Below the pieces are notes generated by a model. That model had not been told where the DNA came from. It ran no database searches and saw only the letters and a list, made by a program, of their open reading frames with translations. Shown here in pieces: positions 16,576 through 45,191 of a stretch of DNA of 64,000 nt (its first letter is position 1; each line of letters opens with the position of its first letter). The stretch lies in contig JAFGIK010000003.1 of the NCBI GenBank assembly GCA_016929645.1, forward strand, positions 6,913 through 70,912, written 5' to 3'. Position numbers and translations under genes: made by a program. This DNA is from Candidatus Dojkabacteria bacterium (lineage in GTDB: Bacteria > Patescibacteriota > Dojkabacteria > SC72 > JAFGCJ01).

Positions 16576-16652
16576 TTAAAATCTAGGAAATGGACTCAAT
16601 TTAGCTTTGATAAAATATTAGCAATTAATTCAAATTACTATTTTTATAAAAG

Positions 16653-18726: not shown

Positions 18727-21700
18727 TTAATATCCTGGGTGAGGGTTATCTCCTGTTAATCTACCAGGATTCTGTTGCCATCCAAGTGTTGGTATTTGAT
18801 TCCAGTCTGTATCAATATATGGGACAGGATTGACATGGGTGGATTGATTGCGATTTTGTCGCAGCTCAAAATGTAGATGATATCCAAGAGCTTGGCAATT
18901 CCAAGCTCCTGTATTACCTGATGTTCCGACAATTTCCCCTTTTCTAATCCTTTCATTTATGCTCCAATTTGTCCCGTTATTTTTTTTGTAATTAGCCAGA
19001 TGGAAATAAACTGTGTTCATTCCGTTGTCATGTTCTATCCTGACAAAATTTCCTCCTGAAAAACACTGGCCATAATAACTATCCCAACCAACAGCTTTGA
19101 TGTATCCATCAGCTGGCGAGATAATTTTCTCGTTTACTGATCCGAAATCTATGCCCATATGCGGACTTTGATATGCCGTATATCCGTGCCATTGAGTTAC
19201 TCCGATTAACCTATTAAATATAAATGTAAAGAATTTTCCTTTATTTGGTGTGATACTTTTGGGAATGGATAAAACATTTGTGCGTCTAGTTGTAGTTTCA
19301 ACTTTTATCCAAATATTTTCTATTGATGCATATCCGATTTGTTTTGTCTCAAAGGCGATCTGTTTTCCTGTTTGGTCTGAGTGAGTCACTAGATTCAGTT
19401 GAAAATATCCTTGTGGATCAATTATTTTGGCAGATTCATATATTGTTCCACTATAGTCTTTTATTTTTGGGTAGAATATAGCCTTTGTTTGTACAATAGT
19501 TTTGGATGTATCATATTGTTCGTCAATACAGGTGAACCATGTTCTTGGATCGAGAAAGCTCTTAGCTTTGCATCTGTAATAATCGACCTGTAGAAGAATT
19601 TGTGGTTGTAGCGCTCCATAAATAGATATTGTGTAATCGCCTTGGGTATTCTTACCCTTGTTTATAACTTCAGAGAGATTAATCTCTGCAGATTTGCATT
19701 GATCCATATGAAATGAGTTGTTATCTTTATGCATTATCGCTGTGCATTTAGGAAGTTTAGGTATTTGAGGGAAGTTCTTAGTGTTATCAAATCCTGACCC
19801 TATGCCAATAGTCTTTTGGGGTGGAGTTTTAATTTCTTTGGTGTCAGCATATGGGCTTTTATTTAAAGCTTTATCTTCAAGATATGTAAACACAGAGTAT
19901 GTAGTATTATCTGCATATTTATGTATTATTTGGATTTTTTCTTGAGGCCTAGCCATTTTTACTGGTGTTAGTTTAATTCCGTTAACGAATATATATGCCA
20001 ATGTATCTATTTCTCCGTCAATATACATGTTTATTGTTCTACTTTGATTGTCGATTTCAAGACTGAATTCTGGTTTTTGAGGGGGTATTGTGTCTACAAC
20101 GAAATTTACGGTGGAATTGGACTTATTTTGTGCAAGATCTTTGCTTACAATTGTAAATTTATTGATTCCTTCATTAGCATAAGCATTTTTTGGTGTTTCA
20201 TTTCCAAGTAAGTACTGGTTTAGCATGTCATTTAGGTAGATTATTTGAGATGAACCCAATTCTACATTTAGACTGATTTGTACAGAATTCGTGTTGTAAT
20301 AATGATTGTTGATAGGGCTATGTATGACAGGTTTAGCCGGAGAAACGTTATCTATATATAATCTTATTGATTCTGATCTTGCTTTATGATCAAATTGATC
20401 TGTAGCCTCTAGATATGCGAAGTAGCTTCCATCTGGAACATCTGGATTAATTGGCCATTCAAAGTTTTCACTCTGACTTGTTATTTTGCCAAATGTTTTT
20501 TCGTGTTTATCGTTTACGATTACGAGTTCAATTTTTTTAAGAGTGGGATCTTCAATCATGACTTCTATTTGAGCAAAGTCGTTTTCTCCTTTGCTTGTTG
20601 TATTGCTGGGTGAAATATTTACTGGAGCAATGTTAAATTTTTTAATTTGTGGAATCCCACTGTCCTGAGTAGATTTTGTTGTCTCAGAGGATTGAGAGAT
20701 GTTGCCAGCGCTATCTCTGGCAAATACTCTGTAATAGTAAGTTTGGCCATCATTCAGGTTCGAGAATGTTGCAGAAGTACTTTTCTCCCATTCTGTTTGC
20801 TGAAAGATTTCAGAGAATTCCTTAGACAGTGATATTTGTGCTTGATAATCAATATTTCTCTGATCTGTGAAGTTATCTTTGGAATTTCTCCAGTTTATTT
20901 GATTACTATTTCCGTTTGTGAATGGAGGTTCAATAATTATTTCTGGTACACTTGGGGAAGTAATATCAACTGTTAAAGAATATATGTTCGATTTGGTTTG
21001 ACCTGTTGTTCCGCCGTGTTCGTCAAATGCAATCACCCTCCAGAAATAATTGTTTTCTTCAATATTATTTATGTAAAAAAAAGGTAATTTTTCAAGGTTA
21101 CTTTGATACATAATATTTTTAAAATCAGTATCAATTGCCAGTTCAAGTTTATACGAGACCTCTTCGTTATCTGGATCTGTTGTTGTCTGAGAACGGAAGA
21201 TCATGTTTGTATTATTAGTATGAATATTATTTTCTGGAGATAATAGATAAAAATTATATGGAGGATTGTTGGGTTTATAAGTGATAGAAATATATGGTTT
21301 TTGGTAAGGTTCGCAGGGATAAGGAGTAGGGGTATTTAAACATGAGATTGACCAGAAAATTGCTGCAGGATTGTATTGATCTGATAGCTTTAGCAAAAGA
21401 CCTTTATCTTCATGATCATACAGAATTGAAGTTTTTACATAATCTGTAATATCAATTGATTTCCAGGTGATTGTTGGCGAGATTATTGTTTGAGATATCA
21501 AGGTTCGTGGAGATGGCTGATTGTTCCAGTTGAGCGTTTGTTCCTGCCAGTCAGTAGATGGAATGTATGCATATAGGATTGTGTCGTTTGTGCCTTCATA
21601 TTCATACATATAAATATTCAATTTAGCGGATATGATATCTTTTGGTAATAGATCGGAAATATCTGAGAAATCGGCCTTGATAAAGGAGTTTGTCAGTTTC

Positions 21701-21894
21701 TTTGTATAATATGTATCGTACCCGACATAAAAGTTCCGATTATTCCAGGGAGAAATCGTTGGAAATCCTTCTTCCACATATGTATCCTGAGAAATCGGGA
21801 TTATGACATCTTCTGCATTGATTCCTTGTGGAAAAATACAGTAAAAAAGGATAGTTATAATTACAGTCAGAAAGAAGATGTTTTTTATTCTCAT
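18727..21894 (-). CDS. large secreted M23/LytM-family metallopeptidase with FN3-like modules
   Basis: Signal peptide. C-terminal 'HMGIDFG' (HxxxD) and 'GYHLHFELR' (HxH) motifs of M23 peptidases. Central FN3-like segments of about 90 aa ('YYYRVFARDSAGNIS'). Confidence 0.85.
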   Translation of the reverse strand: MRIKNIFFLTVIITILFYCIFPQGINAEDVIIPISQDTYVEEGFPTISPWNNRNFYVGYDTYYTKKLTNSFIKADFSDISDLLPKDIISAKLNIYMYEYEGTNDTILYAYIPSTDWQEQTLNWNNQPSPRTLISQTIISPTITWKSIDITDYVKTSILYDHEDKGLLLKLSDQYNPAAIFWSISCLNTPTPYPCEPYQKPYISITYKPNNPPYNFYLLSPENNIHTNNTNMIFRSQTTTDPDNEEVSYKLELAIDTDFKNIMYQSNLEKLPFFYINNIEENNYFWRVIAFDEHGGTTGQTKSNIYSLTVDITSPSVPEIIIEPPFTNGNSNQINWRNSKDNFTDQRNIDYQAQISLSKEFSEIFQQTEWEKSTSATFSNLNDGQTYYYRVFARDSAGNISQSSETTKSTQDSGIPQIKKFNIAPVNISPSNTTSKGENDFAQIEVMIEDPTLKKIELVIVNDKHEKTFGKITSQSENFEWPINPDVPDGSYFAYLEATDQFDHKARSESIRLYIDNVSPAKPVIHSPINNHYYNTNSVQISLNVELGSSQIIYLNDMLNQYLLGNETPKNAYANEGINKFTIVSKDLAQNKSNSTVNFVVDTIPPQKPEFSLEIDNQSRTINMYIDGEIDTLAYIFVNGIKLTPVKMARPQEKIQIIHKYADNTTYSVFTYLEDKALNKSPYADTKEIKTPPQKTIGIGSGFDNTKNFPQIPKLPKCTAIMHKDNNSFHMDQCKSAEINLSEVINKGKNTQGDYTISIYGALQPQILLQVDYYRCKAKSFLDPRTWFTCIDEQYDTSKTIVQTKAIFYPKIKDYSGTIYESAKIIDPQGYFQLNLVTHSDQTGKQIAFETKQIGYASIENIWIKVETTTRRTNVLSIPKSITPNKGKFFTFIFNRLIGVTQWHGYTAYQSPHMGIDFGSVNEKIISPADGYIKAVGWDSYYGQCFSGGNFVRIEHDNGMNTVYFHLANYKKNNGTNWSINERIRKGEIVGTSGNTGAWNCQALGYHLHFELRQNRNQSTHVNPVPYIDTDWNQIPTLGWQQNPGRLTGDNPHPGY

Positions 21895-28906: not shown

Positions 28907-29290
28907 ATGCCTGGTGATAAGAAAAAAATCTTAATTGCAGAGGATGACAAATCGATTGCGATGGCATTGGAATTGAAGCTAAAGAACGTAGGATTTGATG
29001 TCACAGTTGCTAACGATGGCGCAGAGGCTGTCGAATATCTTTCCAAGACGACTTACGATCTTGCTCTATTAGATCTCATTATGCCAAGGAAAGATGGATT
29101 TACTGTTTTAGAAGAGGTTGATCCTAAAAAATTACAAACCCCAATAATTGTTCTTACAAATCTTAGCTCTCTTGAAGATGAAGAAAAGGCATTGAAATTA
29201 GGTGCGAAAGATTATTTTGTTAAGTCAAATATGAGTCTTTCTGAAATCGTAGATTATATCAATAGATTCTTCACGCATGAAAATAAATGA
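28907..29290 (+). CDS. stand-alone receiver (REC/CheY-like) response regulator
   Basis: 'KKILIAEDDKSIAMALELKLKNVGFDV', phospho-acceptor context 'DLALLDLIMPRKDGF', 'KLGAKDYFVK'. No output domain; 127 aa. Confidence 0.85.
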   Translation: MPGDKKKILIAEDDKSIAMALELKLKNVGFDVTVANDGAEAVEYLSKTTYDLALLDLIMPRKDGFTVLEEVDPKKLQTPIIVLTNLSSLEDEEKALKLGAKDYFVKSNMSLSEIVDYINRFFTHENK

Positions 29291-30989
29291 TAAGCAGATA
29301 ATTCAGATCCTTCTTGATGGCAATTATATACCCAAAGATGTAGTACCTGATGCAGAGAAATATGCAAAACATGAAGGTGCATCAATTATTGATTATCTTC
29401 TGACTCAGGGTATTTTAAATAAAGATTTGTTAGGCCAGGCAATTGCAGAATTTTATGGAATTCCTTACGCTGATATAAACTCGAATACTCCTACAAGAGA
29501 AACGGTCCTAAAGATTCCGGAAGAAATTGCCAAAAAATATAATGTAGTATTGTTTTCTGTTGATAAGGAAAAGGTTGTTTTTGCTACAGATTCTCCTGCT
29601 AAACCAGGGATTCTTGAGGAATTACAAAGCTATTTTGTAGATAAAGATGACGAAATAGCTCAGAAAGAATTTGCGCTCGCTTACTGTCTTGAGGAGGATA
29701 TCAAGCCTCTTTTTGTTCATTACCGAAAACCATTACAAACTCGATTTTCTGAAATATCAGCTGATGCGAAGTTAACTGCAGCCTCAGATCTTATAGATGA
29801 TATTGTTGATGACGCTTTGGCATACAAATCATCTGATATCCATTTTGAACCACAGAAAAAAGATGTGATTATAAGATTTCGAATTGATGGTATTTTAAGT
29901 GAAGCAGGAAGAATCTCAAAAGCAATCTATGAAAATATATTGAATCGGATAAAAGTGTTGGCAAAGCTTCGTATAGATGAACATTCTGCTGCCCAGGATG
30001 GTGCTATTCGTTATGAGAGAGAGGGTAAATCTGTTGATTTACGTGTATCCGTTGTCCCAATTTATGATGGTGAAAAAATCGCAATTCGTATTTTGTCGAC
30101 TTACATTCAAGGTTTTGGATTGAATGATATTGGTCTTGGACCTGTTCATCAAGATATTTTAACAAAGGCATCAATGAAACCTTTTGGTATGATTCTTGTA
30201 ACAGGACCAACAGGATCTGGAAAAACAACAACATTGTATTCAATACTGAAATCATTAAATTCTCCGGAACGGAATATCACAACAATTGAGGACCCAGTTG
30301 AATATAAAATCGCAGGTGTTAATCAGATACAGGTTAATTCTTTGACTAATCTTACTTTTGCAAAAGGCCTGAGGTCTATTGTCCGTCAGGATCCTGATGT
30401 TATCCTTGTTGGAGAGATTCGAGATGAAGAGACTGCCGAGATTAGTGTGAATGCTGCACTTACTGGGCATCTGCTGCTATCTACTTTTCATGCTAATGAT
30501 GCAGCAACGGCAATTCCTAGGTTAATTGATATGAATATTGAACCGTTCTTATTGTCTTCAACCTTGGAAGTAATAATTGCTCAAAGATTAGTTCGAACAA
30601 TTTGCGAAAAGTGTAGATACAGCTATGAAGTTAATATTGATGATCTTAAGCGAGATTATCCTCAAGCTGCATTTTATTTTAGCGGTAAGAAAACTAATCT
30701 CTATAAAGGTAAAGGTTGTGATAAATGTAATCATACTGGCTATAGCGGCAGAACGGCACTCTTTGAATTTATTGTTGGAAGCAGGACGCTCAGAGATTTA
30801 ATTTTATTGAACCCTTCAGCTCAACAAGTTTGGGATGCTGCGAAAAAGCAAGGTTCCATATCAATGTTTGAAGATGGAATGACTAAGGTAAAAAATGGAT
30901 TAACAACAATTGAAGAAGTTCTTCGTGTTGCAAATCCAGAAGAAATGTCACTATATGCCCCGAAAAAATCAAGAATCAAAAACAAGTAA
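29277..30989 (+). CDS. pilB: type IV pilus assembly ATPase PilB (GspE family)
   Basis: N-terminal T2SSE_N-like domain, Walker A 'VTGPTGSGKTTTLYSIL', 'ITTIEDPVEY', Asp/His boxes, tetracysteine 'CEKC...CDKC'. Overlaps the REC gene by 14 nt. Confidence 0.95.
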   Translation: MKINDKQIIQILLDGNYIPKDVVPDAEKYAKHEGASIIDYLLTQGILNKDLLGQAIAEFYGIPYADINSNTPTRETVLKIPEEIAKKYNVVLFSVDKEKVVFATDSPAKPGILEELQSYFVDKDDEIAQKEFALAYCLEEDIKPLFVHYRKPLQTRFSEISADAKLTAASDLIDDIVDDALAYKSSDIHFEPQKKDVIIRFRIDGILSEAGRISKAIYENILNRIKVLAKLRIDEHSAAQDGAIRYEREGKSVDLRVSVVPIYDGEKIAIRILSTYIQGFGLNDIGLGPVHQDILTKASMKPFGMILVTGPTGSGKTTTLYSILKSLNSPERNITTIEDPVEYKIAGVNQIQVNSLTNLTFAKGLRSIVRQDPDVILVGEIRDEETAEISVNAALTGHLLLSTFHANDAATAIPRLIDMNIEPFLLSSTLEVIIAQRLVRTICEKCRYSYEVNIDDLKRDYPQAAFYFSGKKTNLYKGKGCDKCNHTGYSGRTALFEFIVGSRTLRDLILLNPSAQQVWDAAKKQGSISMFEDGMTKVKNGLTTIEEVLRVANPEEMSLYAPKKSRIKNK

Positions 30990-32481
30990 TCTGCAAAGTA
31001 AGTCAAAAAACAAAGCAGATTTAAATAAAACTAAATCTAAAACAGCCTCAAAAGGTTTGTATTCCTATCATTTGTCAGATATTTTGTATATTTTCTCTAA
31101 GGGCAAGGAACGTGATTTCTTTGTAGAACAACTATCAATTCTTCTTTTGTCAGGAATGGATTTACTTGCTTCTTTGATGTCGATACGTGATGAGATGAAA
31201 TCAACGTATATGAAGAATGCGTTGTCGATTGTTGTTGAGGGAGTAGAGAATGGAGCCAGCCTGTGGCAATCGCTTGAGCGTGCCAATATACTTAATCCTC
31301 ATTTTATATCACTTGTTAAGATTGGTGAGAAATCTGGCAAATTGATTGATAATTTGAAAGTTATATCGCTTCAATATCAGAAGGATAAAATGTTTCAATC
31401 AAAGGTTTTGTCAGCGGTTATTTACCCGGCAATTGTTTTGGGTTTAACATTTGTTGTTGCTACTGTTTCTGTTGTCTTTATTCTTCCAAGAATTTCTTTA
31501 ACTTTTGGAAGAATGAATCTTGATTTGAATATTCTTACAAAGACCTTAATGGCAGTTGGGGATTTTGTCTCTGCTCATGGAATTATCGCTATTCCATCCT
31601 TTCTAATATTAACTGTGCTTATGATATATTTTATTTTCTTTTTTTCAAAGACGAAATTTATTGGTCAGTGGATTTTGATGATTTTACCAGGTATAAAAAG
31701 AATGATATTGGAAGTTGAGCTATCAAGGTTTGGTTATGTTGTAGGAACTTTGCTCGATTCTGGAGTTCCTATTGTTGATGTTCTTTCGTTTTTATCATCT
31801 GTTTCAAGCTATGAGGCATACAAGAAATTCTATCGATATCTCAAGGAAAGAGTAGAAAATGGTAATTCATTTAAAAAAGCTTTTTCATCGTATAAACATG
31901 TGGATAGATTATTGCCTTTATCTTTCCAGAACTTAATTATAACTGCAGAGCAAGGAGGAAATCTTTCATTGTCGCTAAAAAAAGTTGGCGAGATATATGA
32001 AGAAAAGCTTGACGTTACAACGAAAAACATGTCTGTAATATTGGAACCTATATTGCTGATTATTGTATGGTTAGGTGTTGTACTTGTCGCACTGGCTGTC
32101 ATTATGCCTATTTATACAATGATAGGAAATGTAGACACGCTTTCTGGTAGTAATACAAATTCCAGCACTGTGGAGACAAGAAATGAAGAAGAAACGCCTA
32201 TCCTGCAGGATGCTCCTGATTCTGAACAAACGACGAATGATGGATCTACCCAAGCTGATTCAGAATCAACAGAACAATTAACTGATACGAAACGCCTTAC
32301 AATACTTGAAACATCTACTGGTTACTTGAATGTTCGAAGTAGTCCTATGGGTGAGGTAATTGGTGAAGTCTATCCTGGTGAAATTTATGAGTATACAGAA
32401 GAACAATCTGGTTGGTACAAGATTGTTGTTTCAGATGAGCTTTCAGGGTGGGTCTCTTCTGAGTATGTTAGTTTATTATAG
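30955..32481 (+). CDS. pilC: type IV pilus platform protein PilC (GspF family) with C-terminal SH3b-like domain
   Basis: Two GspF repeats ('FVEQLSILLLSGMDLLASL', 'YVVGTLLDSGVPIVDVL') and 3 TMs. C-terminal S/T-rich linker then 'YLNVRSSPMGEVIGEVYPGEIYEYTEEQSGWYKIVVSDELSGWVSSEYV' (SH3b-like). Start uncertain: first in-frame ATG 30955 overlaps pilB by 35 nt; a non-ATG start after 30989 is possible. Confidence 0.85.
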   Translation: MPRKNQESKTSNLQSKSKNKADLNKTKSKTASKGLYSYHLSDILYIFSKGKERDFFVEQLSILLLSGMDLLASLMSIRDEMKSTYMKNALSIVVEGVENGASLWQSLERANILNPHFISLVKIGEKSGKLIDNLKVISLQYQKDKMFQSKVLSAVIYPAIVLGLTFVVATVSVVFILPRISLTFGRMNLDLNILTKTLMAVGDFVSAHGIIAIPSFLILTVLMIYFIFFFSKTKFIGQWILMILPGIKRMILEVELSRFGYVVGTLLDSGVPIVDVLSFLSSVSSYEAYKKFYRYLKERVENGNSFKKAFSSYKHVDRLLPLSFQNLIITAEQGGNLSLSLKKVGEIYEEKLDVTTKNMSVILEPILLIIVWLGVVLVALAVIMPIYTMIGNVDTLSGSNTNSSTVETRNEEETPILQDAPDSEQTTNDGSTQADSESTEQLTDTKRLTILETSTGYLNVRSSPMGEVIGEVYPGEIYEYTEEQSGWYKIVVSDELSGWVSSEYVSLL

Positions 32482-32492
32482 TCAGAATATCT

Positions 32493-32942
32493 ATGCTTAA
32501 AAGATTTTCCCGAAAAAACGGTTTTACTTTGATAGAGATATTACTTGTAATCTCTCTAATGGGAATTATTTTCATTATTATTACTGGTGTTGATAGATCT
32601 GCAATTATTAGGAACGATCTAATTGTAGCTTCGGATATGGTTGCATCGTCAATTCGTAGAGCGCAGTCTTTGTCTCAAGCTATGCAGCAAGATAGTCAGT
32701 GGGGAGTGAGGATAGTAAATAATCAAATTATTGTTTTTAAAGGTGACTCATATGATACACGGGATTCTATTTATGATGATGTGTATGAGGTTCCAAGTTC
32801 AATATCAATTTCTGGTTTAGATGAGATCATTTTTGCAAAATTGACTGGGGATCCTGATATTACGGGTAGTATTGTTCTAAATACTTCAATTAATCAATCA
32901 AATACCATATCAATAAATGAAAAAGGAATTGTCGATTATTAA
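32493..32942 (+). CDS. type IV pilin/pseudopilin (class III signal peptide)
   Basis: Prepilin motif 'RKNG|FTLIEILLVISLMGIIF' (G-1, E+5) followed by a small beta-rich head. Confidence 0.8.
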   Translation: MLKRFSRKNGFTLIEILLVISLMGIIFIIITGVDRSAIIRNDLIVASDMVASSIRRAQSLSQAMQQDSQWGVRIVNNQIIVFKGDSYDTRDSIYDDVYEVPSSISISGLDEIIFAKLTGDPDITGSIVLNTSINQSNTISINEKGIVDY

Positions 32943-35838
32943 AAAAAAATGTAAAAGTGGAGATGATGAAATACAAGTAAGAAACAATTCTGGATTTTCT
33001 ATTGTAGAAGTTATTGTTGGAATCTCTGTCTTTGCTATGATCTCGCTATCTCTTATAAGTGCGTTTATATTTGGGCAAGATTCTATTATCTATTCAGGGA
33101 AGAGAGCACGGGCTACATTTTTAGCACAGGAGGGGATCAACGCAGTAAAATCGATAAGCGGAAAATACTGGAATGTATTAGATTTTGATCAAACTGGTCT
33201 TGAAGCAAACTCAAATCAATGGACATTTCTTGGAGAAGGTACAACTGAAACAATTGGGGATTATCAACGAATAGTCTCTTTTCAAGAAGTTTGTCGTGAC
33301 ACCACGGATTTAATCGTTGATTGTCCGGGTGATTATGTAGATTTACATATGAAGAAAGTTACTGTCTCGATAACATGGCAAGAGCGTGGTATTGAGCAAC
33401 TTGTAGAACGTTCAGCATTAATCAGTACCTGGGATAGTTCAGAATGGAAAGAAGATACAGTGGATGATTTTAGCGATGGTATTTTTAGTGATACTGTTGT
33501 GTCGTCGTATACGGGGGACGGTAATGGTGCTGTATCGCTTGCGTCTACGGGTTTCCTTCCTGGTTGGGAGTGCATTATTCCGACTTATACCTCATATGAT
33601 CTTCCAACCAATAATGATTCTTTTGCGCTAGAAATATTAAGTGGCATTGCATATATTGGACAGGAAGGACTTTTTAGAACTGTTGATGTCTCAAATATTT
33701 CTGCTCCTGTAATTCTAGATACCATAGATGTTGGTGACAGGATAAATAATATCGTTGTTTCTAACGGTTATGCGTATCTTGCTTCAGATGCAAATTCCTC
33801 TGAACTAATTGTTGTAAATGTTAACAATCCTTCAAATCTCAGTATTGCTAGTATGTATGATGCTGACTCTCAGGTTGATGGTCTGGATGTTATTGTGTCT
33901 GGGAATCGTGCTTATCTTGGAACAAGTATCAATACTTCTGGAGGTGTAAGTCCGGAATTCTATATTCTTGATATTACGAATCCAAACTCTGTCACTCTTG
34001 CCAATCCAAATTCTTACTTTGATATGAATGGTTCATGGTCTGCGATTGCTCTTGTCGGTGATTATGTTCTTGTAGGGAGTGATATAAGTAGTTCTGAGCT
34101 TATGGTCCTTGATATATCAGATGAGTCAAATATTATTTTGGCTGGTACATTAGACTTACCTGGAAATCAAAATGTTACCGATCTTTCTGTAAAAGGAAAT
34201 ATTGCGTATGCTTCGCTCTTATCTGGTAACTTACTTTCGATTAATGTAAGTGATTTAAATAATATTTCTGTAATTCAAACACTTTCTTTATCAGGAGCAT
34301 CATTAAATAATGTTTATGTAACAGGGGAACTTGCATTTATTGGTTCAAATGATGGAACTAGCCAATTGTTCATAATTGATGTTAGTAATCCATATGGAAT
34401 GTCTATCAGAAATACGTTTAGTGCGGGAAGTGTTGTGCATTATGCGCATTTTTTTGGTAGCAATGTCTTTCTTGCTACGGGTAATAATGCAGGAGAGTTA
34501 ATGATTCTTTCAGCAACTACGAGTAGTTCATGGACTTGTGTGAATACTGTTGGCACAATTGATATCTCTGGAAATCTTGATGCTCAAAAAGTTTATGTTC
34601 GAAATTTTGGAGGAGTTGATGTTGCTTATATTGCCGCAAGTGATAATCAGATGTATCTATATAATGTTACTAATCCTGCAAGTCCTGTTCTTTTGGACAC
34701 TTTTAATCCAGGTGCAACAATATATGATTTTGTCATTTCTGAAAATTATATGTATCTGGCTACAGCTTCTAATACGAAAGAGTTGATTGTTGTTGATGTC
34801 TCTGACTCTTCGAATATTAGTGAAGTAGGATCATATGATTCCGCTGGGAATACTGATGGGTCTGCAGTCTGGATTAATGGAATAAACTTGTTTTTAGGAA
34901 CTAAAAGTAGCTCTAGTACCGAATTATATGTTTTGAATATTTCTGATCCAGCAAGTGTTCTCTTGGTGTCAGGATTTGAAGTTGGCTCAGATATTAACAG
35001 TATTGATGGTGACGGTAATTATTTATATCTTGGTACAAGTAATAACTCAAAAGAACTTACAATTCTTAACGTTCAAAATCTTTTGAGCATATCAGAGGTT
35101 GGGTCCCTTGATATAGCTAGTAATAATGATACTGTTGATATTGATTTTGATTTCGGATATGTTTATTTGGTTAACGGTAATGGAAATGTTATGTCAATAA
35201 TCAATGTTAATAATCCTTCAGCACCAAACCTTTCAAGTACTTATTCTGCTGGAGGCAGTACATATGGAGTCTTTGTTGCTGGTGATGAAGTTCACTTGTC
35301 AACAGCTGTTGCTGCCAGACAGCATCAGATAATTGATGTTTCGAATAAATCAATACCTGTTTTACTTGGAGAATATTCTACAGAGGGGAATACGAGTTTT
35401 GGATCATATTTATATAATGGTACTGTTTATATTGCTAACGCTAATAATGCTCGTGAAATTTATATGATTCAGCAGAAAAATGTGAGTAGCTCTGGGGGCT
35501 CAGGATATGTATTATCTGGAAGCTATATTTCTTCTCCTTTTTATACTATTGATGGAGTTTCATATCAAATCCTCGAGTGGGATGAAGCCATACCTGTTTG
35601 TTCAACACCTTGTACGATTCAAGTACAGATTCGAGTGGCAGATGATGTGGCTGGTAGTCCTGGTACTTGGTCTTCGTGGTATGGTGTAACTGGAGTCGAT
35701 ACATATTTCGATTTAAGTTCTGGAAATCTATTATCTGTTGATCTAAATAATTATCCTTGGGTTCAATATCAAGTTTCTTTCTCTGGAGATGGGATTGAAA
35801 CACCAGTATTATCAGAGATGCGAATTAGCTATTATTAA
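32917..35838 (+). CDS. giant pilin-like protein: prepilin N-terminus fused to LVIVD-repeat beta-propeller(s)
   Basis: 'NNSG|FSIVEVIVGISVFAMISL' class III signal. At least 10 LVIVD-like repeats ('NSSELIVVNVNNPSNLS', 'KELIVVDVSDSSNISEVGS', 'SELMVLDISDESNIIL', 'SQLFIIDVSNPYGMS'). Confidence 0.7.
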   Translation: MKKELSIIKKKCKSGDDEIQVRNNSGFSIVEVIVGISVFAMISLSLISAFIFGQDSIIYSGKRARATFLAQEGINAVKSISGKYWNVLDFDQTGLEANSNQWTFLGEGTTETIGDYQRIVSFQEVCRDTTDLIVDCPGDYVDLHMKKVTVSITWQERGIEQLVERSALISTWDSSEWKEDTVDDFSDGIFSDTVVSSYTGDGNGAVSLASTGFLPGWECIIPTYTSYDLPTNNDSFALEILSGIAYIGQEGLFRTVDVSNISAPVILDTIDVGDRINNIVVSNGYAYLASDANSSELIVVNVNNPSNLSIASMYDADSQVDGLDVIVSGNRAYLGTSINTSGGVSPEFYILDITNPNSVTLANPNSYFDMNGSWSAIALVGDYVLVGSDISSSELMVLDISDESNIILAGTLDLPGNQNVTDLSVKGNIAYASLLSGNLLSINVSDLNNISVIQTLSLSGASLNNVYVTGELAFIGSNDGTSQLFIIDVSNPYGMSIRNTFSAGSVVHYAHFFGSNVFLATGNNAGELMILSATTSSSWTCVNTVGTIDISGNLDAQKVYVRNFGGVDVAYIAASDNQMYLYNVTNPASPVLLDTFNPGATIYDFVISENYMYLATASNTKELIVVDVSDSSNISEVGSYDSAGNTDGSAVWINGINLFLGTKSSSSTELYVLNISDPASVLLVSGFEVGSDINSIDGDGNYLYLGTSNNSKELTILNVQNLLSISEVGSLDIASNNDTVDIDFDFGYVYLVNGNGNVMSIINVNNPSAPNLSSTYSAGGSTYGVFVAGDEVHLSTAVAARQHQIIDVSNKSIPVLLGEYSTEGNTSFGSYLYNGTVYIANANNAREIYMIQQKNVSSSGGSGYVLSGSYISSPFYTIDGVSYQILEWDEAIPVCSTPCTIQVQIRVADDVAGSPGTWSSWYGVTGVDTYFDLSSGNLLSVDLNNYPWVQYQVSFSGDGIETPVLSEMRISYY

Positions 35839-35849: not shown

Positions 35850-36401
35850 ATGAGCGTTAGTAAACCAAAGCAAAAGAAAATAAACAAACAACGAATCTCA
35901 AATAATTTTGGGTTTACTCTAATTGAGACACTTGTGTATATTGCTTTATCTGCAATGATAACTGTTACCATTGTCTTATTTCTTTTGATGATTTTGGGTG
36001 GTCGACAGAGAGCAACAGCAATATCAGAAGTAGACAGTCTGGGCAATCAAATGATGTATCAGCTTGAGTACTCGATCAAAAATTCTGATGGAATAAATTC
36101 TCCATTGCCTGGAGCTTCTGAAGATTCATTGTCGCTAATCTTTGATGATCCTGAACAAAATCCTACGTATTATTATATTGATAATTCGGCACTTGTCGTG
36201 AGTGAAGCTGCTTTGGATTCTGTTAGTCTTACGTCATCAAGAGTTGTTGTCTCTGATGTTTCTTTTACAAATCTTACTCTGAGTAATTCTCCAACAATTA
36301 TAAAAATTCAATTCACAATTACATATAAGAACCCTGATAATCGCAAAGAGCTTGACTATTCTCGAACTTTTTATAATTCTGTATTAGTTAATAATTACTG
36401 A
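35850..36401 (+). CDS. pseudopilin/minor pilin
   Basis: 'NNFG|FTLIETLVYIALSAMITVTIVL' prepilin signal with E+5. Confidence 0.75.
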   Translation: MSVSKPKQKKINKQRISNNFGFTLIETLVYIALSAMITVTIVLFLLMILGGRQRATAISEVDSLGNQMMYQLEYSIKNSDGINSPLPGASEDSLSLIFDDPEQNPTYYYIDNSALVVSEAALDSVSLTSSRVVVSDVSFTNLTLSNSPTIIKIQFTITYKNPDNRKELDYSRTFYNSVLVNNY

Positions 36402-36402: not shown

Positions 36403-36843
36403 ATGAAAACCTGTCCGACAAATAATAATGAAATAAAGAAATCTTTAAAATTTCCAAACAAGGGGTTTGTTATTTTATCTGCTGTTTTAATAATTGGAAT
36501 TATTTCTTTGTCTGTCACTGTTTCATTACTCTTTTCTGGAATAAATGCTGCCTTATCTGGGCTTACAATAAGTCAATCGTCACGTGCTTCTATTATGGCT
36601 GATACTTGCGCTCAGGAAGCAATGGAAAGAATTCGCAGAGATAGTACATACATTGGAAATGAAACCATTTCGATGGGTGAGGATTCATGCGAAATTCTTC
36701 CTGTTCAAGATCTAGGTGCAGAATCAAGACTGGTTCAAATTCAAGGGAATTCCGGGGAAGTTAATAGAAAGGTTGAGATAAGGATAAGTCAAATAGAACC
36801 AGAAATAAGGGTTGATTACTGGTATGAAGTTGCGGATTTTTAA
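36403..36843 (+). CDS. minor pilin-like protein (PilX-like; non-canonical, S at +5)
   Basis: 'NKG|FVILSAVLIIGIISLSVTV' hydrophobic N-terminus after a Gly, located in the pilin cluster. Confidence 0.5.
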   Translation: MKTCPTNNNEIKKSLKFPNKGFVILSAVLIIGIISLSVTVSLLFSGINAALSGLTISQSSRASIMADTCAQEAMERIRRDSTYIGNETISMGEDSCEILPVQDLGAESRLVQIQGNSGEVNRKVEIRISQIEPEIRVDYWYEVADF

Positions 36844-36864: not shown

Positions 36865-39800
36865 ATGAATACGTTTAACTCAATACTTCCTGTGATAGCA
36901 ATTATTTGTGTGATGGCACTTCTAGGTTTGTTGTTCGGACAGAAAAAAAAGAATGCACAGGTTCTGAGTCTTATCGCTGCATTAAGTTCTTCTGTTATTT
37001 GGCTGATTTGTGATTTTATGCTGATAAATGTGTTTAATTTTATAAATCAGGCTTTACTTTACAAAGTCACATTAGTATTTGCTGCACTATCAATAATATT
37101 TCTTATGCACTTCTTCATTTCATATTCACGAGTGAAGATTTCGAGTTTTATCAAAGCTATTGTTATTATAATGTTTATATTTTTTGTGGTCATTGATTTA
37201 TTTACAGATACCATTGTAGCTGGTGTGGCAGAGAGTATTGAATTCGGTTCTCAAAACTATATTCCTGGGTCTTTGTATCTTTTGTATATTTTCATGATAA
37301 TGATTCCTCTGCTATCATCGGTTTTTCTGTTAATCAGGAATTATATATATGCCAGGAGAGAAGAAGATAAAAAGTTTTCTAGGATTATGTTTTTATCGAC
37401 GGTTGCTTTTGCTGGTGTTGTTTTTGTGAATTCGGTTATAGTGCCAATGTTTTCGATGCAATCTCCAAGAATTGTCAGTGTAGCTGTTATTTTTCTTGTA
37501 ATAGTATTGTTGATCAGTATTGTTAAGTGGAATATTCTAGGTGTCAGTCTCGGGTTACTTAGTGTTAAAACAAAGATTTTCTTTTCGATTTTTATATTTT
37601 GTCTCGGACTTTTTTCTGTATTGATTATTGTTGCGTATTTTGTATCAAACCTTGTTATGAAAAGTCAGTCCATGACGTTTATTGATCTTTTGTATAAGGG
37701 TAAAAATCAGGATATTGATAATTATGTTGAAAACTATGTTCGGGATATCAAAAAATTTTCGAGTGACGGTGAGATCGTGTTATATTCCAATTCTGATCAA
37801 ATGGTCAAGATTGCCAATTATATTTATAACTCAGATCTTGAAAGCAAGACTGTTGTTGACAAGCTTTCCCAAACAATAGGTGGAGTAGAATTGGTTGTTG
37901 ATAAAGACTTTGAAACAAATCAAATTATTGATTTAAATAGGGCATGGAATAGTTCGTATTGCTGGCATGTTTGTGAAGTAACCGACAATGATCTTAACTT
38001 CTTCCAAGGTGATAGCTATATTGCTCAAAATGGGGAGTTGAGCCAGTGTCTAATTGAATCAATGAGCTCTTGCAACGTATATAGTAACCTTGGTGAATGG
38101 ACATTTAGAAATAACAATGCATATAAGATCGATCCTGTTAATAATTTATATACCAGTATTTTTGTTAGCAAAACTGATGATAATAAGCTTATTTTTCTTA
38201 CGTCAAACGCATATCTGTCATTTGATTCTGATTCACTCTATGCATACGATGATCAAAACACCTTTGCTAACAATCTTGATGAAATTTACGATGTGAAAGA
38301 TACAATGGTTTTCGATGTTGATGGAACTGTTGATTGGTCTTTGAACCATAAATATCTTATTAACGAAAATGTTAATTCAAATATCATAGATAGCAATTTT
38401 TGGCCACAGTTTATTTCAGATGTTGTAAATTCGAAAGAATCAATAATCCAGGTCAATTCTTATATTGATGGAGACTTCAGTGATGTCTTTGTTATTGGGT
38501 ACCCGATTGTTCGTGATGATAGAGTCGTTAAGATAATTGCTGTTGTAGAAGATACCCAGGAAATTGAAAATATTATTGCTCAAAATTTTGATGAAAGAGA
38601 TGATTTGGCAATATATCTCTTAAATTCAGATGGATCAATGCTTTATTCTTCCAGTAATAGATTTATCTCCCATGGGTATGATAAATCAGATATCAATGAA
38701 TTCAGTTGTGATATTGATAGCGATGTGTCGAGTAATCAATATTCTCGTTCTGGTGATCGAATATGGGGTATTTGCGGATTCGATTCAATATTAAATACTT
38801 ATCTCATTATTGAATATCGATTGTCGTTGTCATTTTTAGGCCCATCTTGGTCTGCTTATGTGATGATACTTTTTATATCTGTTGCTTCGCTTTGTATATC
38901 TTCGCTTTCTAATTTTATTGGAAATTATATCTCTGCTCCGATCAAAGATCTGGAAAATGGATGCAAGAAATTATTGAAAGGCGACTTCAGTCATGAATTC
39001 AAAAGTGATTCACAAGATGAAATTGGACAATTGTATCAGTCTTTTGGCAAGTTATCTGGATATATTCACCAAACGCAAGACGAGATAAACGCAAAGATTA
39101 AAGAACAAACAAGATATATTGAGAATCAGAAGAATGAGCTTGAAAATAATCAAAAAGAATTATCATTACTTCTTAAAAATGTTCAAACTGAAAAGGTCAA
39201 AGCACTGAAGGAGAGAAACACAATGAATGCTATCCTGTTCAGCATTGGTGACGGAGTTTTTGTAATTGACCAACATTTCAAGATAGTGATGTTTAACAAA
39301 AAAGCAGAAGATATTTCAGGCTTTAGTTTGGATGATGTTTTAGGGAAGCGTTACGATGAAGTGCTAAAGTTTCTTTTTGAGAAAAGTCGTTCGGTGAATG
39401 ACAATTTTATAAAAAATGCTATATCAGCTAAGGGTGGTAAATATGTAGACGAACCTACTGTTTTAATAAAAAAGAATGGTACAGAAATAGCTGTTTCTAA
39501 TAGTGCGGCTCCAATAAAAAATAAAGCTGGGAAAAAAATTGGATATGTTATTGTATTTCGTGATGTATCAAGGGAGCGTGAAGTTGATAGGATGAAATCA
39601 GAGTTTGTCTCTGTTGCTTCTCATCAGTTGCGAACTCCATTAACTGGGATGAAATGGTATATTGAGCTTTTGGCGGGAAATAATGCAGATAAGCTTAATA
39701 ACGAGCAGATGGATTTTATAAGAAATATTCGTGATAACAATGAGCGAATGATTTCTCTGGTTGATGATTTATTAAATGTTACACGAGTTGAATCAAATAA

Positions 39801-40275
39801 AAACTTTGAAATAAAGAGGAAGAAGGTTGATGTTGTTAGTATTCTTGATAAAGTTTTAAAAATTCAAAATGTTATCGGAACTATAAATAAAGTGAAAGTA
39901 TCTCTTGATTCCAGTATTCCTGAAGAATGTGTATTAAATGTCGATCCTGATAAAATCTTCGAAGTATTTAATAATGTAATTAATAATGCTGTTAAATATT
40001 CGAGGGAGAATGGAATTGTTCTTGTTGGAATGAAGGAAGATTCGAAGACTGTAACCTTTTGGATAAAAGACCGTGGTTATGGTATACCAAAGGATGTTCA
40101 AAAAAGAATATTTACACAATTTTTTAGGGCGGAAAATGTTATCAAGAGGGCCACTGAGGGAACTGGTCTTGGATTATACATCGTGAAGTCAATAATGGAT
40201 GCTCATTGTGGAAAAGTGTATTTTAAGTCCGTTGAAAATAAAGGTTCAACTTTTTTCTTGAGCTTTACAAAATAG
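36865..40275 (+). CDS. large membrane sensor histidine kinase (multi-TM N-terminus, extracytoplasmic domain, PAS, HisKA, HATPase_c)
   Basis: At least 7 N-terminal TMs, ~400-aa extracytoplasmic region, second TM, coiled coil, PAS-like region. H-box 'VSVASHQLRTPLTGM', N-box 'NVINNAVKYS', G-boxes 'DRGYGIP', 'GTGLGLYIVKSIM'. No REC domain. Confidence 0.85.
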   Translation: MNTFNSILPVIAIICVMALLGLLFGQKKKNAQVLSLIAALSSSVIWLICDFMLINVFNFINQALLYKVTLVFAALSIIFLMHFFISYSRVKISSFIKAIVIIMFIFFVVIDLFTDTIVAGVAESIEFGSQNYIPGSLYLLYIFMIMIPLLSSVFLLIRNYIYARREEDKKFSRIMFLSTVAFAGVVFVNSVIVPMFSMQSPRIVSVAVIFLVIVLLISIVKWNILGVSLGLLSVKTKIFFSIFIFCLGLFSVLIIVAYFVSNLVMKSQSMTFIDLLYKGKNQDIDNYVENYVRDIKKFSSDGEIVLYSNSDQMVKIANYIYNSDLESKTVVDKLSQTIGGVELVVDKDFETNQIIDLNRAWNSSYCWHVCEVTDNDLNFFQGDSYIAQNGELSQCLIESMSSCNVYSNLGEWTFRNNNAYKIDPVNNLYTSIFVSKTDDNKLIFLTSNAYLSFDSDSLYAYDDQNTFANNLDEIYDVKDTMVFDVDGTVDWSLNHKYLINENVNSNIIDSNFWPQFISDVVNSKESIIQVNSYIDGDFSDVFVIGYPIVRDDRVVKIIAVVEDTQEIENIIAQNFDERDDLAIYLLNSDGSMLYSSSNRFISHGYDKSDINEFSCDIDSDVSSNQYSRSGDRIWGICGFDSILNTYLIIEYRLSLSFLGPSWSAYVMILFISVASLCISSLSNFIGNYISAPIKDLENGCKKLLKGDFSHEFKSDSQDEIGQLYQSFGKLSGYIHQTQDEINAKIKEQTRYIENQKNELENNQKELSLLLKNVQTEKVKALKERNTMNAILFSIGDGVFVIDQHFKIVMFNKKAEDISGFSLDDVLGKRYDEVLKFLFEKSRSVNDNFIKNAISAKGGKYVDEPTVLIKKNGTEIAVSNSAAPIKNKAGKKIGYVIVFRDVSREREVDRMKSEFVSVASHQLRTPLTGMKWYIELLAGNNADKLNNEQMDFIRNIRDNNERMISLVDDLLNVTRVESNKNFEIKRKKVDVVSILDKVLKIQNVIGTINKVKVSLDSSIPEECVLNVDPDKIFEVFNNVINNAVKYSRENGIVLVGMKEDSKTVTFWIKDRGYGIPKDVQKRIFTQFFRAENVIKRATEGTGLGLYIVKSIMDAHCGKVYFKSVENKGSTFFLSFTK

Positions 40276-44162: not shown

Positions 44163-45191
44163 TTAGTCCTTGATTACTACAATTGCCATATTTTCAAGGT
44201 TTTGAAATCCTGTTCTAAACTCCGGATAACTTACTGCATCGTATGTCCCAAATCCGACATCCATAAGGTAGATTTTTTCGGGATCTATTCCATGGATGAC
44301 CAAGGCATGTTCATCTTCTATCCATGGATTTTCTTCTCCATCTGGACCGATCATTGTCCCAACTGTCTTGGGCTTAAAATCATTTGATACCCATACAATT
44401 ACTGGGTAACCTTGACGTACGTAATTGAATAATTCATCTACGTCCCAGTTTGTTTTAGAAATACTGGAAGAAAACCCATGATTGGCAAGTACTTTATATA
44501 CTGGTTCATTGTATACGCCATATCCATCAACATAGACAACTTCGCCATCAATATTTCCGACAAATGAACGTTGAGGGTTTCCCCAGTGAAGATTTCCTTG
44601 ATCATCAAAATATCTAGTACTTGTTGTATCAGCACCAATTTCTGCTATGATCTGATCCTCAGTAACATCTACTCCAAAATATTTCATCAGAATGTGTGCA
44701 CTTGCTGACTCACAGGAAGCTGGATGGGTTTGTTTGTATGTTTCGACATTCATGATTACTGTTGAGGGATATGTGTTGAGTCTTGGTGGATTTGAGGTTG
44801 AGTTTATCTGGTCTTCTAGCTCTAAAATCTTGAGTTGCAATGAGGTAATTTCTTGTTCATAATCTTCAATCTGTGATTCTTGTTCTTCTTCTGTGTAACA
44901 ATCTTTAGCACGTTGTATTGCTATGAATTTGGTAACGAAATAATAAATCAGGAATGAGAGAGCGGCTAATGCTAGGAAAAGCGGAACTATCATCCATCTA
45001 TTTTTTTCGTTTTTAGCCTTTGTTGGCTTTTCTTCAACGAAATTGATATTTTGTGGAAGATCGAAATTCTTTGTCTGTTGTGGATTAATCATATGATCTA
45101 TTATCTCAATTAATTTGCTATTTGCAATAGGAATCCTTCGTATTATATAGTTAAAGATATAAATTAATAAGTATTTTTTATGGCTGATCAA
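44163..45191 (-). CDS. membrane-anchored protein with C-terminal C39-like (papain-fold) cysteine peptidase domain
   Basis: TM 'WMIVPLFLALAALSFLIYYFV', heptad coiled coil, then 'YKQTHPASCESASAHILMKYFGV' (Gln...Cys nucleophile context) and later His/Asp candidates 'HALVIHGID'. Confidence 0.55.
   Translation of the reverse strand: MISHKKYLLIYIFNYIIRRIPIANSKLIEIIDHMINPQQTKNFDLPQNINFVEEKPTKAKNEKNRWMIVPLFLALAALSFLIYYFVTKFIAIQRAKDCYTEEEQESQIEDYEQEITSLQLKILELEDQINSTSNPPRLNTYPSTVIMNVETYKQTHPASCESASAHILMKYFGVDVTEDQIIAEIGADTTSTRYFDDQGNLHWGNPQRSFVGNIDGEVVYVDGYGVYNEPVYKVLANHGFSSSISKTNWDVDELFNYVRQGYPVIVWVSNDFKPKTVGTMIGPDGEENPWIEDEHALVIHGIDPEKIYLMDVGFGTYDAVSYPEFRTGFQNLENMAIVVIKD

Follow-up and report, generated by a model that had tools for sequence, protein, structure and literature searches.

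A two-propeller minor pilin in a pilus operon of Candidatus Dojkabacteria, a candidate host-contacting tip subunit

The window analysed here (a 64-kb stretch of a Candidatus Dojkabacteria genome) carries a pilus operon on the forward strand, in which the genes for REC, pilB, pilC, four pilins and a histidine kinase form a tight co-oriented run, overlapping or abutting one another. [quoted passage not shown] The first gene of the operon encodes a single-domain response regulator (REC; 28907..29290; Pfam Response_reg, E = 3e-24), followed by a PilB/GspE-type assembly ATPase with an MshEN domain (29277..30989; Pfam T2SSE, E = 4.5e-119, and MshEN; TIGR02538 pilB at 467 bits, under the curated cut-off) and a PilC/GspF platform protein with a C-terminal SH3_3 domain (annotated at 30910..32481; T2SSF, E = 2e-43; SH3_3, E = 9e-12), which has 508 aa in the Logan gene call and whose true start probably lies near 30955. 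Directly downstream of pilB-pilC, a block of four pilin genes begins with a GspH/ComGD-like minor pilin of 149 aa (32493..32942; KNG/FTLIE, with a slash for the predicted cleavage site; N_methyl, 26.1 bits; ComGD, E = 1e-7 over aa 8-130; GspH, E = 5e-4) and continues with the GspI/PilV/ComGE-like protein of 973 aa on which this study focuses (32917..35838), a GspJ/ComGF-like minor pilin of 183 aa (35850..36401; NFG/FTLIE; N_methyl, 20.7 bits) and a pilin-like protein of 146 aa (36403..36843; NKG/FVILS). GspK/ComGG-type tip subunits are known to lack E+5, and this residue is absent from the fourth protein in all three sequences read (the window, L002 and L001); it had no family matches in the profile scan and is a candidate GspK/ComGG-type capping subunit. 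A multi-pass membrane HAMP-PAS histidine kinase lies 21 nt downstream of the block in the same orientation (36865..40275; Pfam HATPase_c, HisKA, PAS and HAMP, with a weak HisKA_7TM match).

The same block of four, in the same order after pilB-pilC, was found in five further independent Patescibacteria locus types (L001, L002-4, L005-6, L007-8 and L019, the last a Saccharibacteria MAG locus), where pilB has one to four REC genes in front of it and sensor kinases on its upstream side, and where the block is followed by pilM and then by a canonical major pilin. The position downstream of the block that pilM holds there is occupied by the histidine kinase in the Dojkabacteria window. Orthologues of the first, third and fourth block genes occur in both L002 (36%, 37% and 32% identity, respectively) and L001. 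Among orthologues of the first gene, that of L019 passes the Pfam GspH gathering score and that of L007 matches GspH weakly, and those of the third gene match ComGF in 4/5 cases, HpsC in 4/5 and GspJ in 1/5. These weak, slot-specific matches, all under curated thresholds except the L019 GspH match, are consistent with a putative H-I-J-K order. The first-pass annotation had placed the 973-aa gene between a major pilin and two minor pilins, downstream of pilB/pilC; its position relative to pilB/pilC holds, but the 149-aa gene encodes a minor pilin, since the related loci place the real major pilin after pilM. The conserved minor-pilin block adjoining pilB/pilC thus supports the incorporation of the 973-aa protein into a pilus.

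The 64-kb window, a fraction of the whole genome, contains no gene for a prepilin peptidase, for PilM/N/O, for PilT or for a major pilin, and none of the scanned ORFs of at least 110 aa matched Peptidase_A24 (prepilin peptidase, PilD). The lack of a major pilin, PilM and PilT, together with the replacement of pilM by a histidine kinase and the approximately equal scores of PilB against GspE and PilB models, would fit a surface display without any fibre, in which the class III signal and the alpha1N helix would serve as a membrane anchor or a very short pseudopilus stub (cf. archaeal bindosome sugar-binding proteins and T2SS pseudopili), holding the propellers at the cell surface. However, the five related locus types continue with pilM and a canonical major pilin, the genome extends beyond the window, and pilus formation is known from Patescibacteria (PMC12206443), so that we regard a fibreless display as unlikely.

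The ORF at 32917-35838 (ATG start) was confirmed exactly as first described, and its product is identical to JW887_00320, which NCBI lists as a hypothetical protein from a Candidatus Dojkabacteria bacterium MAG. From the N- to the C-terminus, the protein consists of a 26-aa leader, a pilin module of ~150 aa, a linker of ~40 aa, two LVIVD propellers (~640 aa, ~70 kDa) and a jelly-roll domain of ~115 aa, so that the propellers are enclosed by the pilin module on one side and the jelly-roll on the other. The initial description of ~900 aa dominated by repeats, with a signal standing in place of a pilin head, therefore needs correction on both points, as a pilin module is present and the C-terminal domain is separate from the repeats. 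The mature protein (101 kDa) is extremely acidic, with a pI of 4.05, 102 D+E against 28 K+R and a pI of at most 4.5 for every domain. The AlphaFold2 (AF2) model of the whole protein has a mean pLDDT of 82; because of its low pTM (0.53), it does not predict how the head and the pilin module are oriented to each other.

The basic leader peptide (32917..32994) ends in G26, the predicted site of prepilin peptidase cleavage, and forms with the following residues a class III (prepilin) signal, KKKCKSGDDEIQVRNNSG26/F27SIVE31, with a hydrophobic residue at +1 and E31 at +5, after which comes a hydrophobic alpha1N of ~20 residues (F-S-I-V-E31-VIVGISVFAMISLSLISAFIF). In the family alignment, E+5 is invariant and G-1 is at least 90% conserved. 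The pattern [GAS]xxxxE was found in 137 of the 150 best family representatives (~91%; G at -1 in 130, A or S in 7), the other 13 being mostly truncated gene calls; this conservation bears out the proposed prepilin signal against an ordinary Sec or transmembrane anchor. The pilin module itself (aa 27-175; 32995..33441) comprises F+1, E+5, the alpha1N segment and a conserved C126...C136 pair, and is predicted to form a long alpha1 helix and an antiparallel sheet; two AF2 models, of the full-length and of the cargo-deleted protein, place the helix at residues 30-87 and the beta-strands at 92-170, with a pLDDT of 85-96 for the module in the cargo-deleted model. It is joined to the repeats by a linker (aa 176-218; 33442..33570) that is modelled poorly (pLDDT < 70) but is conserved, with the pattern W-x-E-D...DF-x-DG...GDG-x-V-x-L in the family alignment. 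Taken alone, the N-terminal module matched ComGE (E = 2e-4), XpsI (E = 0.011) and GspI (E = 0.014), all under curated cut-offs, and 11 family N-terminal modules gave weak, sub-threshold but consistent matches to GspI, ComGE and XpsI in 8/11 and to PilV in 4/11. These matches and the gene order suggest that the module belongs to the GspI/PilV/ComGE class.

One could still suppose that JW887_00320 is no pilin but an ordinary LVIVD surface protein, exported by Sec or anchored in the membrane, with an N-terminus that is prepilin-like by chance only. Pfam N_methyl (PF07963) indeed narrowly misses its gathering score (19.1 bits against 21.2; in a sample of 52 relatives, 26 match N_methyl at E <= 1e-3), TIGR02532 falls slightly under its cut-off (13.5 against 16.3 bits), the leader is unusually long (26 aa against a family median of 11) and long for a type IVa pilin, and the LVIVD proteins retrieved by homology mostly have other anchors (e.g., T9SS sorting domains). 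Against this supposition stand the G-1/E+5 conservation mentioned above, the ~150-aa module common to hundreds of proteins with other cargo and the fixed place inside the pilin block by pilB/pilC in all loci examined; this explanation is already disfavoured, and we give it hardly any weight.

The repeats themselves are well supported, as Pfam LVIVD (PF08309) matched the protein with 81.2 bits (E = 3.2e-23; gathering score 20.2), five stretches passing singly, and a self-trained HMM delineated 14 units of ~45 aa each between aa ~225 and 858, which exceeds the at least 10 units noticed at first. The units are predicted to fold as four-stranded blades of closed propellers, since the AF2 model of the repeat region (pLDDT ~90) contains ~56 strands, ~28 per half, corresponding to two 7-bladed propellers. 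We place the first propeller at aa 219-553 (33571..34575) and the second, which includes the best Pfam LVIVD stretch (aa 605-641), at aa 554-858 (34576..35490), in both cases from the HMM units, the AF2 strands and the Foldseek results, whose top matches for the 973-aa model were tandem double 7-bladed propellers (E <= 1e-15). As an example, PorZ of the T9SS and the periplasmic sensor domain of BT4663, both described as glycan-binding, likewise have a head in which a beta-sandwich comes after two 7-bladed propellers (Foldseek E ~1e-15, TM <= 0.42 on the target); however, with 11-13% identity, no pilin module and other cellular contexts, this resemblance is one of fold only. Note that LVIVD repeats have no known function on record, which we counted against the adhesin reading.

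The C-terminal jelly-roll (aa 859-973 plus the stop codon; 35491..35838) is conserved and corresponds to no Pfam family. An exhaustive profile search at E <= 1e-30 retrieved 772 cluster representatives, 171 to 2414 aa long, in which the pilin module and the jelly-roll form a constant scaffold and the segment between them (hereafter cargo) varies among members; in minimal members of 300-330 aa, the pilin module is joined straight to the jelly-roll, without cargo. From sequence comparison, the two terminal domains define a very large CPR family whose central cargo is swapped between members, and the five related locus types include members with non-LVIVD cargo. LVIVD accounts for ~7% of the family, and the cargo recognised by Pfam in 52 sampled members consists mostly of lectin or other binding modules, lectin-like ones being commonest (e.g., Laminin_G_3, H_lectin, Pentaxin, MAM, CBM_4_9 and a trans-sialidase lectin domain).

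The existence of minimal members without cargo and the high variability of the cargo could also mean that the protein is mainly a structural or priming subunit, whose pilin module and jelly-roll initiate the pilus and whose cargo acts not as an adhesin but as a spacer, a shield or a decoy, antigenic or for phages. It would be in keeping with such a role that members of the LVIVD subgroup differ no more in their propellers than in their scaffold (25-41% against 21-42% identity). Nevertheless, the recognisable cargo belongs overwhelmingly to ligand-binding folds, and deletion of the minor pilin PilX2 of TM7x (see below) affects host binding and does not abolish filaments (PMC12206443), so that a mainly structural role appears improbable to us. 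A competence-pilus DNA receptor, like the Thermus pilin ComZ, in which a large inserted beta-solenoid provides a precedent for DNA binding by an inserted pilin module (PMC8179133), might be considered as well, given that Patescibacteria are naturally competent and that the N-terminal module weakly matches ComGE models. Yet a mature protein of such acidity, and profile scans of the 973-aa protein that returned no DNA-binding family match, make this very unlikely.

JW887_00320 is a modular pilin in the sense of Raynaud et al. 2021 (PMC8179133), that is, a protein with an N-terminal pilin motif and at least one domain that is not pilus-specific. As in the examples of that study (e.g., the pilin-vWA PilB and the pilin-lectin PilC of S. 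sanguinis), an N-terminal pilin module is combined with a bulky non-pilus module in a minor pilin of a pilus locus, for which a role as tip adhesin is argued; from the S. sanguinis PilB case, bulky modular pilins were argued to fit the pilus tip only. Unlike them, the graft is not simply C-terminal, as the cargo precedes a conserved jelly-roll, and the protein is a putative GspI/PilV/ComGE-class subunit of a four-gene block. Dataset S1 of the same paper lists ~30 proteins with N_methyl and 1-13 LVIVD repeats (IPR012902 + IPR013211, the latter confirmed to be LVIVD), and its text cites one from Candidatus Falkowbacteria that is 860 aa long and has 12 LVIVD copies; none of these LVIVD pilins was studied there. 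The 973-aa protein would probably be missed by such an InterPro-based census because its N_methyl match is sub-threshold.

A further parallel comes from Saccharibacteria, in which PilX2 of Nanosynbacter lyticus TM7x, a minor pilin with a seven-bladed beta-propeller, was proposed to be the adhesin of the T4P-2 pilus; its deletion approximately halved early host binding and impaired competition (PMC12206443). Judged by its published description, PilX2 is likewise a Patescibacteria minor pilin with an added propeller, but it has one RCC1-type propeller, no predicted PilD signal and a pilin-only locus, whereas the 973-aa protein has two LVIVD propellers, a canonical G/F...E signal and a position directly after pilB-pilC. 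An analogy with PilY1 had also been offered, as inference. The PilY1/PilC adhesin of Pseudomonas, Neisseria and Myxococcus type IVa pili does present a propeller at the pilus tip together with four priming minor pilins (PMC8179133, PMC12206443); however, PilY1 is itself no pilin, is bound to the minor pilins by non-covalent docking and belongs to another propeller family (IPR008707), whereas the propellers described here are covalently part of a pilin, and no PilY1-family Pfam model matched the protein at E <= 0.1. The analogy may therefore hold for the way of working and not for family membership.

With respect to gene order, the block resembles the GspH-I-J-K, FimU-PilV-W-X and ComGD-E-F-G sets, in that the genes for the ATPase and the platform protein are followed by a run of four pilin-like genes, the last of them without E+5. 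The smallest subunit of such a set is normally the I-class one (~100-130 aa, against 973 aa here), and classical sets carry the extra domain on the K or X subunit, or on PilY1, instead of on the I-class subunit. ETEC CofB, V. cholerae TcpB and Thermus ComZ similarly combine tip pilin modules with extra beta-rich domains for ligand, phage or DNA binding (PMC8179133), but with other folds (beta-repeat/beta-sandwich, beta-solenoid) and in other pilus classes, and no sequence relation between them and the 973-aa protein was detected.

Altogether, we consider it rather likely that the 973-aa protein is a GspI/PilV/ComGE-class minor type IV pilin of the Dojkabacteria pilus operon, whose head is displayed at the tip as a binding device. 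The tip position is favoured because of the bulk of the protein, and display there as an adhesin is our best reading from this bulk, the minor-pilin block and the published precedents (PMC8179133, PMC12206443). According to the proposed mechanism, the preprotein would be inserted into the membrane by its hydrophobic alpha1N helix and cut after G26 by a prepilin peptidase (PilD), and would then assemble with the GspH-like, the GspJ-like and the E+5-less capping subunit into a priming complex on PilC. PilB would then drive the polymerisation of a major pilin whose gene lies elsewhere, and this would lift the complex to the pilus tip, where the very acidic propeller-propeller-jelly-roll head of ~85 kDa could bind to another cell or to a surface through a ligand there, which would probably be a glycan or a surface protein, and thereby mediate long-range attachment.

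The pilin-LVIVD architecture is already catalogued (Raynaud et al. 2021, PMC8179133) and a propeller-bearing minor pilin with a host-binding role is already known (TM7x PilX2, PMC12206443); JW887_00320 as a single gene would not surprise a pilus specialist. Type IV pili are the best-supported apparatus by which Patescibacteria find and hold their hosts, and a propeller-bearing minor pilin matters for this in one cultivated species (PMC12206443); JW887_00320 represents a concrete candidate for a host-contacting tip subunit in an uncultivated lineage. We also put forward, tentatively and as a possibility rather than an expectation, that the pilus operon of Patescibacteria encodes, as its second minor pilin, a lineage-wide cassette-exchange device, with a constant scaffold and a recombination-tolerant slot whose cargo (LVIVD, lectins, CBMs and unannotated folds) would set the host cell, much as phage receptor-binding proteins set host range; the Dojkabacteria protein would then be what determines the host specificity of its pilus in such an episymbiont. 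The family analysis flags a widespread C-terminal domain without Pfam annotation, and the conserved scaffold with its exchangeable cargo slot could be mined across thousands of genomes for predictions of attachment specificity.

The ATG-initiated open reading frame at 32917-35838 (+), hereafter the target, was recovered by ORF listing and translation exactly as the first-pass annotation had placed it, and its 973-aa product is identical to the hypothetical protein JW887_00320 (NCBI) of a Candidatus Dojkabacteria MAG, so that the organism falls within the Patescibacteria (CPR); the window itself is AT-rich (G+C about 30-38%). The N-terminus reads MKKELSIIKKKCKSGDDEIQVRNNSG|FSIVEVIVGISVFAMISLSLISAF, and since the only in-frame alternative start downstream of the ATG is a TTG at codon 5 (with no ATG or GTG), the leader measures 22-26 aa. 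The Pfam check proposed for this ORF was positive for LVIVD (PF08309; 81.2 bits, E = 3.2e-23, gathering score 20.2) but not for N_methyl (PF07963), which reached 19.1 bits on residues 22-46, slightly below its gathering score of 21.2; likewise, in NCBIfam, TIGR02532 scored 13.5 against a cut-off of 16.3 and the ComGE match was weak. The G-1/E+5 pair, on which the prepilin reading had been staked, is kept in homologues. Indeed, in an exhaustive profile search, [GAS]xxxxE followed by hydrophobic residues was found in 137 of the 150 best representatives (G in 130), the 13 others being mostly gene calls truncated at the motif. In addition, G|(F/Q)S-x-x-E is present in all full-length homologues (P0002, 36% identity; P0006, P0007, P0008 and P0010, 26-29%) and in more distant relatives, and across 11 aligned N-terminal modules E31 never varies, with G26 and S28 conserved at 90% or above. 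Note that the residue after a prepilin cleavage site (+1) is usually Phe or Met; among the 137 family members with the motif, it is Gln in 77 (G|Q-S-x-x-E), which could be a reason why signal predictors miss such pilins. The pilins PilX1 and PilX2 of TM7x were reported to have no predicted PilD signal (PMC12206443).

Two AlphaFold2 models gave the pilin module an alpha1 helix of 55-58 residues (aa ~30-87) and, after it, an antiparallel sheet (aa 92-170), with a pLDDT of 85-96 in the cargo-deleted model, which was built with natural short family members. Against PDB sequences, the N-terminal-module profile aligned with pilins in the first ~35 residues only, and the whole target had no phmmer match. 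For the repeat region, an HMM trained on the target itself delimited 14 units of about 45 aa (at least 10 had been anticipated), seven at aa ~225-553 and seven at 555-858; the full-length AlphaFold2 model (mean pLDDT 82.3, about 90 across the repeats, pTM 0.53) contains about 28 strands per half, and a Foldseek search of the PDB matched the tandem double propellers of Utp21, COPI, PorZ and the BT4663 sensor domain (E 1e-15 to 1e-18). These three lines of evidence indicate two seven-bladed propellers, which bears out the first-pass claim of LVIVD repeats forming propellers, although the repeats cover about 640 aa in total and not about 900. A separate domain occupies the C-terminal ~115 aa (pLDDT 85-95 in the cargo-deleted model); it has no Pfam match, and its top Foldseek match, CBM6, is weak (E about 3e-3). 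One cysteine pair (C126/C136) sits on the pilin module's conserved 'VCRD...CPG' loop, 'W-x-C' opens each propeller (C219, C541), as in P0002, and the C-terminal domain carries a 'C-x3-C' (C895/C899); read from the sequence, the placement of the pairs 126/136, 219/541 and 895/899 suggests possible disulfides. The classical tip adhesin with a propeller, PilY1, is no pilin itself, and membership of its family was rejected, as Pfam gave the target no PilY1-family match. The mature protein (101 kDa, pI 4.05) counts 102 D+E versus 28 K+R, and this strong negative charge argues against a ComZ-like DNA-binding role. All 19 of its N-x-S/T sequons are located within the propellers.

Within the window, the target belongs to a tight co-oriented run on the forward strand, in which REC (28907-29290) overlaps PilB (29277-30989) and PilB overlaps PilC (30910-32481); after an 11-nt gap comes a 149-aa pilin (slot 1, 32493-32942), which overlaps the target (slot 2) by 26 nt, and the target is separated by 11 nt from a 183-aa pilin (slot 3, 35850-36401), itself 1 nt from a 146-aa pilin-like protein (slot 4, 36403-36843), with a HAMP-PAS histidine kinase (36865-40275) closing the run after a further 21 nt. 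A six-frame scan of the whole window returned three canonical prepilin motifs and no more, each of them in this pilin block, and the slot 4 N-terminus (KG|FVILS) is prepilin-like without E+5. Among the tested window ORFs of at least 110 aa, Pfam recognized neither a prepilin peptidase nor PilM/N/O, PilT or an additional pilin; a promoter/terminator scan of the window gave chance-level results only, and a second, 48.8-kb assembly of this locus stops within the window region. Elsewhere in the window, the minus strand encodes a 1055-aa protein with CBM96, Ig-like/fn3 and C-terminal Peptidase_M23 domains (18727-21894), which from its domains is probably a large secreted peptidoglycan endopeptidase and could act on a host cell wall, a very large predicted protease (885-aa S8 subtilase, 8825-11482) and a Peptidase_C39_2 protein (44163-45191), and the plus strand a 1172-aa predicted protease with a trypsin-like domain (57176-60694). 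Moreover, positions 1-17000 and 49861-52778 hold dense clusters of glycosyltransferase and methyltransferase genes with a UDP-glucose dehydrogenase-like gene and a Bac_transf priming transferase, which probably serve surface polysaccharide or glycoconjugate synthesis and, should the pilins be glycosylated, could matter for them.

The pilin block is conserved in contigs carrying homologues of the target, which we compared at L001 (with P0002), L002-4 (P0008), L005-6 (P0012), L007-8 (P0011) and L019 (a Saccharibacteria MAG). Their gene order runs from sensor kinase/REC through PilB, PilC, a ~145-160-aa gene, the large family member, a ~170-aa gene and a ~130-160-aa gene to PilM (often with SH3_3) and one to three strong-N_methyl pilins, and this holds even where the family member carries cargo other than LVIVD (L005-6 and L007-8). 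According to BLASTP, the three small window proteins each have their orthologue at the same position of L002 (32-37% identity) and of L001, and none resembles the post-PilM pilins past the first ~17 residues. By their sequence, it is the post-PilM pilins (GFTLIELLIVIAIIAIIAA...) that look like major pilins. The 149-aa gene, orthologous to the first gene of the block and unlike the post-PilM pilins, is therefore not the major pilin. Thus, the first-pass interpretation was largely right, inferential on function, correct in placing the target downstream of pilB/pilC but wrong on its upstream neighbour, which is ComGD/GspH-like.

Slot by slot, the 149-aa protein matches ComGD across almost its whole length (E = 1e-7) as well as GspH, its L019 orthologue exceeds the Pfam GspH gathering score and its L007 orthologue matches GspH weakly. 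Slot 2 N-terminal modules match GspI, ComGE and XpsI in 8 of 11 cases and PilV in 4 of 11, all below curated cut-offs; slot 3 orthologues match ComGF (4/5), HpsC (4/5) and GspJ (1/5); and slot 4 yielded no family matches and lacks E+5 in the three sequences read. The block thus resembles an H-I-J-K (ComGD-E-F-G) set in which the target takes the I position. In type IV filaments, sets of this kind build the priming and tip complex, and their K/ComGG-type subunits have no E5.

Components around the block vary. The window PilC bears a C-terminal SH3_3 domain (E = 9e-12), whereas in L002, L007 and L019 PilC is without it and SH3_3 domain(s) occur on PilM instead, so this putative cell-wall-binding module seems mobile between machine components. 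In the window and in three of the five locus types (L002-4, L005-6 and L007-8), the operon is flanked by a sensor histidine kinase together with one to four single-domain response regulators, and the sensor type differs among pilus loci (CHASE, dCache, multi-pass membrane). The window kinase, downstream of the minor pilins, occupies the position of pilM and the major pilin in relatives, which suggests a rearrangement.

On a larger scale, an exhaustive search of 1.84 billion cluster representatives with the ~200-aa N-terminal profile retrieved 772 proteins at E <= 1e-30 (4555 at E <= 1e-10). A narrower alignment gave 45 related loci. The 150 best matches range from 171 to 2414 aa; the same C-terminal domain occurs in 114 of them (at the very C-terminus in 111), and only 11 have four or more LVIVD-like units. 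Members of 300-330 aa fuse the pilin module straight to the C-terminal domain. Considering these short and differently loaded relatives, the target propellers fill a slot (aa ~215-~857) of the scaffold, i.e., the pilin module plus the C-terminal domain, that holds other cargo in relatives. Among 52 random members, Pfam recognized Laminin_G_3 (6), LVIVD (3), H_lectin (3), BNR (2), Beta_propel (2), Pentaxin (2), Laminin_G_2 (2), and MAM, CBM_4_9 and a trans-sialidase lectin domain (1 each), most cargo being without annotation. The architecture is hence one of exchangeable cargo, mostly lectin-like where recognizable. A ~300-aa unannotated module ('...SVSTDESWMQVNLQNNYINPVIV...') lies within the pilin module of P0005, whereas P0004 and P0009 have it in their C-terminal cargo region; by sequence, more than one scaffold site apparently accepts cargo.

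Nearly all specifically named members are Patescibacteria (Dojka-, Magasanik-, Harrison-, Falkow-, Pacei-, Sung-, Uhr-, Nomura-, Niyogi-, Wolfe-, Kerfeld-, Doudna- and Saccharibacteria), the other matches being several TPA MAGs labelled Proteobacteria and one 45-aa match in a Caldilineaceae MAG. The TPA MAG contigs in question (L010, L012, L013, L021, L029 and L038) are titled 'uncultured Gammaproteobacteria bacterium' or 'Pseudomonadales' and carry family members typical of Patescibacteria; these titles are probably record-level taxonomy errors and not true non-CPR occurrences. The target as query found no relative in species-representative genomes, its closest relative in the searched collections shares 36% identity (its 90% cluster has one member), and in the LVIVD subgroup propeller divergence does not exceed that of the scaffold.

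Neither this architecture nor the tip-adhesin idea is new. Raynaud et al. (2021) established modular pilins, in which a pilin carrier bears a grafted effector module at the tip (PMC8179133), and their Dataset S1 contains about 30 proteins with an N_methyl motif followed by 1-13 repeats of IPR013211, which is the LVIVD repeat and has no known function; as an example, an 860-aa Candidatus Falkowbacteria pilin has 12 copies 'of unknown function' (PMC8179133). In TM7x (Saccharibacteria), PilX1 carries a beta-jelly-roll and the minor pilin PilX2 a seven-bladed RCC1 propeller, and deletion of PilX2 halved early host binding and impaired competition (PMC12206443). Since RCC1 cargo of the PilX2 type was absent (Pfam) from the 52 sampled members, a direct homology link to PilX2 is unproven. 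Our analysis adds the assignment of the target to the I-class slot, the conserved architecture of a scaffold with a slot, a C-terminal domain lacking annotation and the corrected 'major pilin' label.

Altogether, the target joins a pilin-type N-terminus to a double-propeller and jelly-roll head, within a conserved minor-pilin block beside the ATPase and platform genes. We propose that a prepilin peptidase encoded elsewhere would cleave it, and that it would co-assemble with its three neighbours into a priming complex and sit at the pilus tip, since the filament body has no room for a head of ~85 kDa, an argument also made for S. sanguinis PilB (PMC8179133). The head would then bind a ligand and thereby mediate attachment; fold analogues and sister cargos suggest a glycan or surface protein. 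The target is a good candidate for the pilus tip with which an uncultivated CPR lineage would contact its host.
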